A stretch of DNA of 64,000 nt. Origin: Glaucostegus cemiculus. Its lineage: Eukaryota. The notes under the pieces were generated by a model. It was not told the origin of the DNA and ran no database searches. It saw only the letters and a program-made list of their open reading frames with translations. The DNA lies in the NCBI GenBank assembly GCA_976551045.1, contig CDPCPM010000062.1, positions 1 to 64,000 of the forward strand. Direction: 5' to 3'. Of this stretch, positions 1-64,000 are shown piece by piece. The translations under genes and the position numbers were made by a program. Each line of letters opens with the position of its first letter. Positions within the stretch are counted from its first letter, which is position 1.

Positions 1-233
1 GGCGTTGTCTGTCATAATTCATGCTTCTGCCTTTGGGAAAACAGCCTGACGTGCCAAGGAGGGAAAAAAAAAGAGGGGAGGAAAAAAGAAAAGAAACAAA
101 ATATAAGGGCAGAGTTTTGATGGAGTTCGGACAACTTTTTCTTTTGCGAATTTCCCCACACCTAGAGAGAGAGAGAGAGAGGAGGAGGAGAACTACTTTT
201 GGCTTCGCAGGTTCTGGGCTTCAACCTCTCGTC
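1..233 (+). other. rarb: 3' part of the RARB (beta2-type) 5'UTR, with upstream ATGs at 21 and 120
   Basis: Directly upstream of ATG 234. Blocks TTGTCTGTCATAATTCATG, ACGTGCCAA, GGGCAGAGTTT-GATGGAGTT and CCACACCTAGAG match my recollection of the mammalian RARB2 leader (not aligned computationally). The promoter and its RARE would lie upstream of the window. Confidence 0.8.
164..190. repeat. (GA)n/(GGA)n microsatellite in the 5'UTR
   Basis: Seen directly. Confidence 0.9.
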
Positions 234-391
234 ATGTTTGACTGCATGGATGTTCTCGCAGTCAGTCCCGGGCAAATGCTGGATTTCTACACTCCGAGCC
301 CGTCTTCTTGCATGGCTCCAGGAGAAAGCTCTGACTGCATGCTTCAATGGACTGACACACAGGGACTGGCAACAGAAGCCCAGCACTCAAT
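234..391 (+). CDS. rarb: Retinoic acid receptor beta, isoform beta2 first coding exon (A region), with an apparent 1-bp insertion at 314-315
   Basis: [27 protein letters not shown] in one frame, then [25 protein letters not shown] in the next frame, matches the RARB2 N-terminus ([53 protein letters not shown]). Phase-1 donor T|GTAGGT at 391/392. Confidence 0.95.
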
Positions 392-458
392 GTAGGTTCT
401 CTTTATTATTGTTCTTCATAATGCATATGGTAGAAAACGCTGCGTGTCCGCTTATCTT

Positions 459-494
459 TCTCCCCCCCTCTCCCTCTCTCTCTCTCTCTCTCTC
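459..494. repeat. (CT)n microsatellite
   Basis: Seen directly. Confidence 0.9.
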
Positions 495-703
495 TGATAT
501 ACAACCCTCTTCTCTTCCCTGCTCTGTCCTCAGACATTGCACCGAGGTTTGATCTGTTGTGCTGGGCATCAGTGCTTTGCCGTGGATAGTGACAGCGGTG
601 TGAAAAGTAACTGGATACTTTTGCCACTTCAACACTGGCGTACGCATCTTTACATAGTGTGCCGAGGAATGCGGCTGGTAAACAGTGGCACAAGCGTTAA
701 GGT

Positions 704-728
704 TAGAGAGAGAGAGAGAGAGAGAGAA
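704..728. repeat. (GA)n microsatellite
   Basis: Seen directly. Confidence 0.9.
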
Positions 729-3700
729 ACACACACAAAACTGGAAATGAAACACTCACTCTCTCGGTTTCCCCGTTTGAAGGTTGCAAGCGAGCAGGGA
801 GCCGAGAGGTTGCCCCGTGTCTGGCTGGACAGGGCTTCCAATAAATCTCCATCAGTTCCTCCTTAGCTGTCTGTCTTCAGCAGGGAGAGAATTTACAGCG
901 GTTCTTTTCCAAGTGTCACTCTCGTTCATTCATTTCCACCGGTTGTTATTTCCATCTTTAATGTAATCGCCTGAATGGTATTTCAGCAGAATAAGTACAA
1001 GAGTCTGGCTCTGTTCGCGGTGTGTGGTTTTATTTTTTTTTTCCCCCTGCGAGGTGAAGTGGCTTTTCACGATCGTGCTGCCGTCTCTTGTAAACATCAA
1101 ACATTGTTTTAGTTTAAAAAAAAACATTTTTTGAGGAGAAAACAAATAAAGACTTTACCTTATCAGAAACATCGTTTCTGGGCTGGTAAACGAAGAATTG
1201 CGGATGAAAGATTAGCACAAAACAATCAAAGAAATGGCCAAACCCCTAACATCAGTTATAAACGTGAGAAAATAGATTCTTAAAATGATTTTAGCTTAGT
1301 GCTTCTCTCTGAGTGTTATTTTCATTAAGATTGGGCAGTTGCGCACATCCTTAATTTGTCGAATAATATTTTCATTGTACAGACGCCTCGTTTATTCACA
1401 TCGAAGTATTTATCATTCGACTTTCTGTTCGGCAGCCTAGTGCCATAATGTCCCAAGCTGTAATTGCGATTTTAGTTTCACCCGCCAACACAAAAGCCCG
1501 TCATCGATTTTTTAAAGAGTATTTTCAGTTTATTTTTGATGTGTTTTTTTTAATGCGAATTGAGAAAACATAATGTTACTATACATATAGCATTCAGGGA
1601 AACGCTAGGCGATTAAATGATGGTTTTATTTCAGCCATGAATAAGGAGCAGCTACGGTACAAAAGCAGATCATAGAGGGTAAATCTGGAGGTAATATTGC
1701 CCCGGAATAGCAGTGACCACAGACCTTAGTATTTCCTGGTTTGCTGTTCCTCATTAAGCACTTTGTGGCTCTGTGTTTATTAATGGCTAGCAGAGACGGC
1801 AGATTGATTGCATTGACCTGCCAGCATCTCTGAAAACCTTTTTTCATTGTGCCAGTGTAATGAAAAGGAGATTGAGAGAGCTGACAATACTAAGGTTTTA
1901 GTAATGTAATAATGTTGTAAGAGACACCTTAAATTACCTGTTTGATGTACATTCAGCAATTTCAGCTGTTAAAGGAAAAAAAATCAATCCATGGTACAGT
2001 AACTTGTCCCCTGTGTACTGCTAACAGCTGTGCGCTGCTTTTCTTAAGCACTTTTCACTTCAAAGTTTTATGGGCAAATCTCAGTGTCTTTTGGGGTTTA
2101 ATTAAGTTATTACAATGAAAACCGATGCAGATATAACTCAATTCCATTGCAGTTTTAGTGCAGGAACACTGCTTGCTTGTATTGTGAGGTTCCTCAGGTC
2201 AAATTATTAATTCATTGTGCTTTTATAACTACTTAAGCATGATTACTCACCTATTAAGCACTGTCTATAACTAAGATGGCACTGGCATCTTTTATAAATG
2301 GAACACAATCTGTTCTGATTTAAGGTAAACAGATAGTGTGCAGGAGTGCTAGCAAAAAGTATTGAATGTTGCTGCCTTAGAGAAGACAAAATTTAATTGT
2401 TTTTATCTATAACTGAGGTGTACCTTTCCCTACAAGTGCTGTGCTTTAATCATTAATTTGTCAAGAAATAAATAGATTTAAAAAATATTGTCCAAAAGGA
2501 AGGTATGCATTTTTTTTTTCCCCCTCAGTACTTTTCAATGTTGCTCAAAATATCTCCACTAGGAGGTGTGTGACCCAGCCTAGGTGACACTCCCTCTTGG
2601 TAGGTAAATGTTTGATTTCTGCCTGGTAACTCCCCATGGTACCAATGTTGAGATCATGTATTTGGCATTTAACTCCCAGGTGGTAGACAGCTTATGGCCA
2701 ATGAATCCCTAATCTTCAGTCTGTTTGTGGCTTCAAAACAATGTGCTGCATCAGCATAAAGTGCTTAAAAATAAGAGTATAACAAGAAATTTCATTTTGT
2801 GTCAGCATGTCTAAATGTTTTCTCTAATCTTATCCATGTAAGAGGGACATACTGATTTATATGGGAAATAGTAATAGAAATCATCATCGATAGATGGATT
2901 AAATTAAATGAGCATTCACATTGCTAGAATGAGCATACATGTTAAAAAAATTGTTTCTTAGATAGTTATCTGCCACTGATAATGAGCATATTTTACATTG
3001 AAAGGGGAGACGTGGAGATGTTTTCAGCACATAGCTCCTCGTTCTGGCATAAATCATTCATCGTCGCTGTAATGAATATTGAACAGCAATAATATTTCTA
3101 TTCATTATTAGCACTTCCAAATCTTGTTTTTTATTAGGGCAAATATTAAACTATTATTAATAAATGTATCTTACTACTAACTTTAAAAAGTTAAATCCAA
3201 TTTTGAATATTGATAAACATTTTTTAAAATAACCAAAGACTGTTGGTTTCTGCGCCAGTGTGAATGTGAATAATATGCCATATTTGTGGAGTCTTAAACC
3301 ACTTCCTGATCCTACTGCTCACTTCCCCACTTAATAAGTTTGATTAACATTATAACATATTCGTGCAGACATTAGGCTCAATGACTTTAAGCATGTGATG
3401 ACAAATGAAGTAGCAATTTGAGAATGCAGTATGAGAAGAAGATTTCAAAATATAATCTTGAAATACATGAGAATTTAGTTTAGTTTTACAGATTATATTT
3501 TAAGTTTCTAGGACAGCTGTTTTCCACACACAGTTTAATTCATCAGTTCATCGTCATCATATTGACTGACAAATTGTTAGTTGCATGATTATAGGAGCCT
3601 TAAAATGGAGTGAGGAAGCAATTTCCAATGTTGTGTAATTGTAACAGCAACTTGGTATTCATCAGTGTCACATCCCACTGCATTTAATCTGGGATATGTA

Positions 3701-4059
3701 ATGGTACTTTGAAAGAAAGGTTTAATTAAGTAATGTAGCACTGGTTTTGTTCAAGCCGAAATGAGGCAGGATTAATGCAAGAAGTGATTGTCGTGATGAG
3801 TCACTTTAGGGGCTCTCTGTTCGGGGGGTGCATGTGCTATAATCGTGTCCAAAAACCATGGTTATAGTCAGGCCATAGAGAAACAGCCCTTTGGTCTGTC
3901 ATGTTCTTGCCAACCATTGTACTTACCTATACTAGTTCCATTTACTTGCAAACAGTCTTTTCAAAAAAAAAAATCAGGGTACTGATTGAACATTGGTATT
4001 TAATTATAAAAATGCTGTGAATTTGTTCCTGTTAGCTAGACAGTAGGAGCCGTAACTAA

Positions 4060-4900
4060 CCATAGAATACTCACCACAGTGATTTTTTTCCTGACTTGAT
4101 GTATCAAAAGCAGATGTTGATGGTGCAATGGACCAGTTGTTGGTCACAGTAAAAGTTGCAACAAAGATAAATTATAAGAAAAGAAATAGGTGTTTGTTTT
4201 GCATGTTAAAATAAAGTTTTTTTTGAGAATACTTCATTCACTGGTTGTGCTCATCAATGACAGGGCCAGCAGTGGCTCCCGAAACAGTGATGGTGAACTG
4301 CCTTTTTACAATAGTGCAGTTCTTGTGATGAACACCCTCCAGATGTGCTGTTGCATGGGAAATACCAGGACCTTGAACCAATCTCAGGAAGGCATGCTGA
4401 TACATATCCAAGCAGAGAGAACGGTATCTGCTTTGTTCTTCCAGATAGTTGATTCAGGAAAGGATCTCAAAGAAGTTTGAAGAGTGCATCTTGTAGATAG
4501 TATACATTGTGGCCATATTGTTTTGATGGTGGAGAGACCAACTGTTTGGGGCAGTGAACTGGTGCCAGTTAAGTGACTGATTGGTACTTGGTTGAGCTGC
4601 ACTCAGTGTTCAACCAAGTCAACTCCAGAGCATTCCATCACCTTCTCAGCTTGTGCTTTATAGGTAGTGTGAAAGGTTTGGAGCATAAAGTCAGTCACTA
4701 GTCACAGAACACCTAGCTTCAGAGCTGGTCATATTTGGCAGATCAAGTTAATTTTCTGATCAGTTGTGACCCCAGAATAATGGTAGTGTTGCTGTGTGTC
4801 AAGGAGAGATGTTGAAGGGAGGTGGTTGGGTTCACTCTTGTTGGCGATGACCTTTGCCTGAATGTCACTTTTTACTTATCGGCCAAAGCTTGTCAAGTTG
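4060..4900 (-). mobile_element. Old, degraded LINE fragment (CR1/L2 group)
   Basis: Reverse-complement similarity to the better preserved copy at 52555-53030 (e.g. AGAGCATTCCATCAC vs GCGATGGAATGCTCT). Confidence 0.55.
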
Positions 4901-5247
4901 CTGACAGATTTCAGGGCTCAAACCAATATTTTTGTGACGTAGAAGAGGAACAGGGGCTTGAAGTGCAATTGTGTTAACCAATAAACGTTTCTTATTTCTC
5001 CTGGTTAGTGGAGCAGGCTTTTAACATCTTATTCCAGAACAAGTTCAGAAGCTTCATAATTGAAGATGCTCTGGATGGAAATAATTGTATTATTTAGTCC
5101 ATTGTGCTGCATTTTGATTATTTAAAATGCAAACTAAATGATTTTGTTATACATCCTAAAATTACACCGCTGTTTCTTTGTAAGATGACAAAAGAGGAAA
5201 AAAGGCATGTCTTTCATCGTTTCAAAGCTCGCTCACTCTCTGCAATG

Positions 5248-33930: not shown

Positions 33931-34422
<492 letters not shown>

Positions 34423-63342: not shown

Positions 63343-64000
63343 GGTGAGGGTGAGGTGAGGGTGAGGTGAGGGTGAGGTGCGGCGAGGGTGAGGCGAGGGT
63401 GAGGGTGAGGGTGAGGGTGAGGTGAGGGTGAGGTGAGGCGAGGGTGAGGTGAGGGTGAGGTGAGGGTGAGGTGAGGGTGAGGTGAGGCGAGGGTGAGGTG
63501 AGGGTGAGGTGAGGGTGAGGTGAGGCGAGGGTGAGGTGCGGCGAGGGTGAGGTGCGGCGAGGGTGAGGGTGAGGGTGAGGTGAGGCGAGGGTGAGGTGAG
63601 GGTGAGGTGAGGGTGAGGTGAGGGTGAGGGTGAGTGTGAGGTGCGGCGAGGGTGAGGTGCGGCGAGGGTGAGGTGAGGCGAGGGTGAGGTGAGGGTGTGG
63701 TGAGGGTGAGGTGAGGGTGAGGTGAGGGTGAGGGTGAGGTGAGGGTGAGGGTGAGTATGAGGTGCGGCGAGGGTGAGGTGCGGCGAGGGTGAGGTGCGGC
63801 GAGGGTGAGGCGAGGGTGAGGTGAGGGTGAGGCGAGGGTGAGGTGAGGTGAGGGTGAGGTGAGGGTGAGGTGAGGTGCGGCGAGGGTGAGGGTGAGGTGA
63901 GGGTGAGGTGAGGGTGAGGTGAGGGTGAGGTGCGGCGAGGGTGAGGTGCGGCGAGGGTGAGGTGCGGCGAGGGTGAGGTGAGGGTGAGGGTGAGGCGAGG
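63343..64000. repeat. G-rich tandem array of GGTGA/GGGTGA/GGCGA/GGTGC units, dominant 11-bp unit GAGGGTGAGGT; continues past the window end
   Basis: Seen directly; at least 658 bp. Confidence 0.97.

Follow-up and report, generated by a model that had tools for sequence, protein, structure and literature searches.

Two promoters (beta1/3 and beta2/4) serve the gene for retinoic acid receptor beta (RAR-beta, gene RARB) in mouse and human, and their alternative first coding exons are joined to one common exon, as described in PMC2797528; the same arrangement is found in the ray Glaucostegus cemiculus, and upstream ATGs are present in the beta2 leader of the ray as in that of the mouse (PMC2200052, PMC2120959). 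In human, loss-of-function alleles of RARB are associated with syndromic microphthalmia (Srour et al. 2013/2016, as presented in PMC7027867). The ray gene as assembled resembles them in that translation would end short of a full DNA-binding domain, likewise a loss of function, but the human alleles described there lie in the DNA- and ligand-binding domains, common to all isoforms, whereas the putative frameshift in the ray would affect only transcripts from the beta2 promoter. A different kind of precedent comes from long-read sequencing, where published work names miscounted run lengths as the chief error of HiFi data and describes dropouts at A/G-rich low-complexity tracts (PMC7545148; bioRxiv 2021.07.02.450803). 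The locus studied here is like the cases in these two reports in that a one-base run-length change produces a coding frameshift and in that the break lies beside purine-rich and G-rich low-complexity DNA; it differs in that the run concerned is one base long and that the published cases are human HiFi data.

The window analyzed in this work is the first 64 kb (64,000 nt) of contig C62 (CDPCPM010000062.1; 4,936,195 nt) of the assembly GCA_976551045.1 (2.85 Gb, 1511 contigs). Close to its start we found a beta2-type first exon of RARB with an MFDC-type A region and a phase-1 donor, as expected except for one extra base (Table 1). Positions 305-325 read TTCTTGCATGGCTCCAGGAGA and contain TGC ATG GCT CCA GGA. 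An earlier note, made from the sequence of the window, had claimed that an extra G at 314-315 breaks the conserved CMLQE and that both halves of the exon are conserved nevertheless. Our analysis confirmed both claims: the coding part, which begins with ATG 234 and is followed by the GT donor at 392, measures 158 nt instead of the 157 nt (52 codons plus one base) required by the beta2-type isoform of sawfish RARB (XP_051872947.1, here P0005), and tblastn aligned residues 1–27 of P0005 to 234-314 and residues 28–52 to 316-390, both with 100% identity and in different frames. The register offset across 314-316 is exactly one base in all seven stored records tested. The paralogous first exon on contig C77 has 157 nt with CMLQ unbroken, and CM[LV]Q occurs in 140/140 of the MFDC-start proteins compared (from a total of 149), although as annotated proteins these are selected for intact frames. 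The note was also right about the two reading frames, as translation revealed: the ATG-234 frame, joined to the acceptor at 34025, gives 98 residues and then ends at TGA 34161-34163, and ATG 250 is now in frame with the zinc finger and with all downstream exons. The extra G is real in the assembly file and likely absent from the animal.

Table 1. Features of the beta2-type first exon of RARB and of the sequence around it (positions in the window)
Feature	Position	Strand	Remark
Truncated 5' leader of the beta2-type exon	1..233	+	Position 1 is the first base of C62
GG where five cartilaginous-fish records imply GGG	122..123	+	P0150, P0008, P0129, P0011, P0012; deduced from peptides, not DNA
Beta2-type first exon, coding part	234..391	+	158 vs 157 nt; RNA depth of relative A goes to zero after ~391
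ATG normally out of frame, from the conserved Met-Asp-Val codons	250..252	+	In frame with downstream exons only via the extra G
GG where relatives have a single G; +1 frameshift, likely a consensus error	314..315	+	Second G absent in 4/4 runs of relatives
Splice donor GTAGGT of the first exon	392..397	+	Identical hexamer at the end of the paralogous exon on C77
First common exon, intact; encodes the B region and the beginning of zinc finger 1	34025..34173	+	149 nt, bounded by AG/GT
TGA ending the shifted ATG-234 frame after 98 residues	34161..34163	+	10 nt before the next junction

The gene is RARB (NR1B2) with both promoter types, and the extra G is its sole lesion. Its seven downstream exons (C62:34025-177458) are all bounded by AG and GT and join to one open frame, with the same exon phases as in the sawfish, and the encoded protein is identical to P0005 in 27/27 residues before the break and 380/380 after it, i.e. 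in all 407 residues compared. A protein search returned 133 matches among 140 candidates, and the 120 listed are mostly led by cartilaginous fishes; the QKPSTQ stretch is that of rays and skates, not of sharks, and points to a batoid. A type II topoisomerase gene (PF00521 matches at C62:237367-243821, minus strand) lies tail to tail with RARB, a linkage that we take as a synteny rule for this gene; the paralogue on C77 is TOP2-linked as well, and topoisomerase linkage alone has no power to separate beta from alpha. The exons read ELATK, ILRI and ERVIT, which we take to lie at helix positions H3, H5 and H11, respectively, so that the pocket residues are Ala, Ile and Val. According to PMC4821253, the Ala/Ile/Val pocket is the beta signature among RARs. 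The beta1-type first coding exon was found intact on contig C321, and a motif scan of the window for additional RAR exons gave only two chance matches. The picture is not that of a unitary pseudogene or of a loss in this lineage, with one lesion, 7/7 downstream exons intact and 0 changes in 407 residues.

Compared with P0005, the ray gene has, beside the extra G in the first exon, an in-frame insertion of 9–10 residues in the F region encoded by the last exon (C62:177202-177458). A cassette exon of 30 residues between the DNA-binding domain and the hinge (C62:83539-83631) is present here; annotations of several sharks and rays treat it as optional. In the TOP2-linked paralogue at C77:3376514-3376676, probably RARA, there is a second first exon, which begins with MFDCMDVL as in beta2 and keeps CMLQ; this exon may be near the ancestral "isoform 2" N-terminus.

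A comparison with related species, which the earlier note had suggested as a check, gave a single G throughout. The run search with positions 190-700 listed 23 runs, the best with a word share of 0.28 and none at half, RNA runs included, which says nothing about expression, and no read of G. cemiculus or of the sequenced individual was recovered; four runs from three organisms (A, B and C) were compared with the window over this interval, one of RNA (X21) and three of DNA (X1, X7 and X10). The second G is missing in 4/4 of them (2/2 RNA reads in X21 and one contig in each of X1, X7 and X10), and the missing G at 314 is the only indel between the relatives and the window in 190-454. The three DNA runs have 9 substitutions in common relative to the window, and at 589-599, within a stretch of intron 1 that is otherwise conserved, the window is about 12 bases shorter than organisms A, B and C; because of these differences the runs are probably from other species and inform about the ancestral state only. 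The single G of the relatives thus shows the ancestral state, not that of this animal. Two of the substitutions fall within the exon, at 266 and 269; they are silent third positions in the normal frame and second positions in the ATG-250 frame, where they would change residues, which weakly favours the normal frame. The RNA reads of relative A span 190-391 and have zero depth beyond about 391, consistent with the donor. Among the stored proteins, a spliced, batoid-like transcript record (P0150) that was called in the ATG-250 frame matches the window up to RARLLA and then switches frame as for one G, so its translation would also imply a single G. Across the RARB N-terminus, P0150 and P0151 have a +1 frame that stays open for 184–214 residues, probably by chance; in the window, stops interrupt this frame.

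The extra G sits 314 nt from the start of C62. DNA searches with positions 1-200 and 200-420 of the window matched nothing beyond the window and the C77 paralogue, with no overlapping contig or second haplotype. The beta1-type exon is oriented toward position 1 of C321, from which it is 192 kb distant, and this end of C321 is formed by a G-rich minisatellite (C321:1-912, 912 nt, about 45 copies of a 21-nt unit) that reaches the contig end and contains 21 non-overlapping motifs of four G-runs. The array, which would lie upstream of the putative beta2 promoter, is the likely cause of the assembly break. Neither C321:1-20000 nor positions 1-5000 of the window contained a DR5 element, and the beta2 promoter was found on neither side, which suggests that the break falls at this promoter. 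We infer that position 1 of C321 faces position 1 of C62, and that the gap between the two contigs contains the beta2 promoter, probably with its RARE. At the other end of the window, another G-rich tandem array (63343-64000; GGTGAG-type units, period 11–16) lies in intron 2 and extends past the window end.

From the site at the contig start beside a gap, the relatives without the second G and the intact remainder of the gene, we conclude that the extra G is very probably a homopolymer miscount, at a contig end where coverage is likely thin, and not real biology. According to this explanation a G would have been miscounted as GG, a run-length error of one base, and the true gene of the animal would likely encode a normal RAR-beta2. 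Read depth at the start of C62 would then be low, and the reads would be of a long-read type with run-length miscounting as the main error. The surroundings agree with such an error, since the run-length change is found at a contig end, positions 56-115 are 92% A+G and the facing contig end is a G-rich array; a run of a single base is, however, less error-prone than a long one, which counts against it. The earlier note had also favoured a consensus error, and this judgement is upheld by the contig end, the relatives and the otherwise undamaged gene, but not by the argument from the leader that accompanied it (see below). As an error, the extra G would be an issue of curation only: automatic annotation would call RARB broken or choose a wrong start. 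At this break, the assembly also lacks the beta2 promoter.

The assembly is not generally frameshift-prone, and a high background rate of errors was not observed. Titin-like, Frizzled and RARB coding frames from the assembly interior, together about 43.6 kb, contained 0 breaks, which gives an upper bound of about 7e-5 per base; the length was taken from stop-to-stop frames, which slightly overstate the coding length, and covers the assembly interior, not contig ends. The titin-like locus on C33, a name suggested by its dense fn3 array, has unbroken frames of 5750, 1969, 1014, 712 and 614 codons, and seven Frizzled loci are single frames of 443–652 codons; three other loci among the 15 matches of the Frizzled search were left out, being split like multi-exon genes. 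The GPCR family was rejected as a gauge of the error rate: its 147 matches were all stop-free, but scoring was limited to these top 147 among 13,343 candidates, a selection that favours intact genes. Since the interior is accurate, the case for an error leans on the position at the contig end. A toy calculation with assumed priors gave odds of error of 0.14 for a rate of 1e-5 and a prior of 1e-2, and 0.61 for the same rate and a prior of 1e-3; with the single-read rate of 1e-3 and a prior of 1e-3 or lower, also assumed, they were at least 0.99. Low priors are favoured, because human RARB has a pLI of 1.00 (PMC6892198) and real null alleles should therefore be rare.

The accuracy of the interior (0 breaks) also speaks for a genuine and recent frameshift allele, probably heterozygous, in the animal that was sequenced, although we regard this as unlikely. 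The mRNA of such an allele would likely be lost to nonsense-mediated decay, with RAR-beta supplied by the other allele and by the beta1 promoter, whose type of exon is intact on C321. The TGA lies 152–854 nt upstream of the later junctions (and 10 nt before the next one), which fits nonsense-mediated decay with its 50–55 nt rule, and a recent allele would likewise show no decay of the frame and be missing in relatives. Rarb-null mice are described in PMC6892198 as having only reduced growth and locomotion defects, so that a carrier animal is plausible. The null allele requires, however, that a rare allele of a constrained gene happens to lie within 314 nt of the contig start, a place where one would expect errors to accumulate; moreover, the searches with 1-200 and 200-420 detected no second-haplotype contig with either allele, and another possible G-run discrepancy is situated only 190 nt away, at 122-123. 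Heterozygosity for such a null allele, if real, would be a curiosity confined to one animal.

A fixed change of the lineage, in which the normal beta2 start was lost and the receptor is made from ATG 250 by leaky scanning or by a restart at Met113, is not plausible, since the old frame before the break shows no decay (27/27 residues unchanged and both substitutions silent in the normal frame), and we consider it highly improbable. The ATG-250 form would carry a new N-terminus of 22 residues in place of 27 residues conserved across jawed vertebrates, and the Met113 form would lack zinc finger 1. It is true that the ATG-250 frame continues through every exon, that initiation in the mouse beta2 leader, under the control of five uORFs, is already complex according to PMC2200052 and PMC2120959, and that the shark isoforms P0136 and P0143 are annotated from MVYTCH, which corresponds to residue 113 here, the next in-frame Met. 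The context of ATG 250 is weak, however (T at -3 and T at +4), it is preceded by ATGs at 234 and 246, and no GT or GC donor beside 392 would restore the phase; the poor start context and the substitutions that are silent only in the old frame both argue against rescue by leaky scanning. The peptide from ATG 250 gave 11 matches among 12 candidates, each only over the common 55%, and no isoform starting at this position was found by the peptide search or in the protein collection. Nor is the lesion one that relatives share, as would be expected for gene loss: the G is absent in the 4/4 runs, and 0/4 shifted open frames have an exact match in the 15-billion protein collection, where blanks are weak evidence, given that annotations favour intact frames and that the species seems poorly represented. 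The receptor from ATG 250 that the earlier note offered as a fallback is thus possible on paper and finds no support, having a weak context and no record with that N-terminus. Only a fixed change would be of broad interest, as a case in which a vertebrate has naturally lost or rewired a highly conserved isoform of a developmental receptor, and as a natural test of the function of the beta2 A region, encoded by the exon of the retinoic-acid-inducible RAR-beta2, but the evidence runs against it.

A genomic GG that is corrected during expression, by programmed ribosomal frameshifting or RNA editing, would account for the conservation on both sides of the break. We found no slippery run in 305-325, and the relatives, with their single G, need no correction, so that this explanation appears extremely improbable; to our knowledge, there is no precedent for such a correction in RAR genes. 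A literature search, which had most subscription papers outside its scope, likewise brought up, among the papers listed, none on a frameshifted or lost RARB gene in a ray or any other cartilaginous fish.

The case for a consensus error had earlier been argued also from single-base insertions in the leader, relative to the mammalian leader. There are no indels at 190-233 compared with the three relatives, and the sole candidate for a private difference, at 122-123, is a missing G, not an insertion. When the leaders of sharks and stingray are translated conceptually, the frame changes repeatedly relative to the window, and even from shark to shark; leader indels therefore do not show errors. The GG at 122-123 fits two other records, P0021 and P0030 (snake), and judging from the peptides this site may be a second G-run miscount or a real change of the lineage. 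The leader contains the purine-rich tract at 56-115 and a GA microsatellite, and it has two upstream ATGs, at 21 and 120. Both of these ATGs share the frame of ATG 234 without an intervening stop; this frame depends on an A-rich tract and the GA microsatellite, both variable between species.
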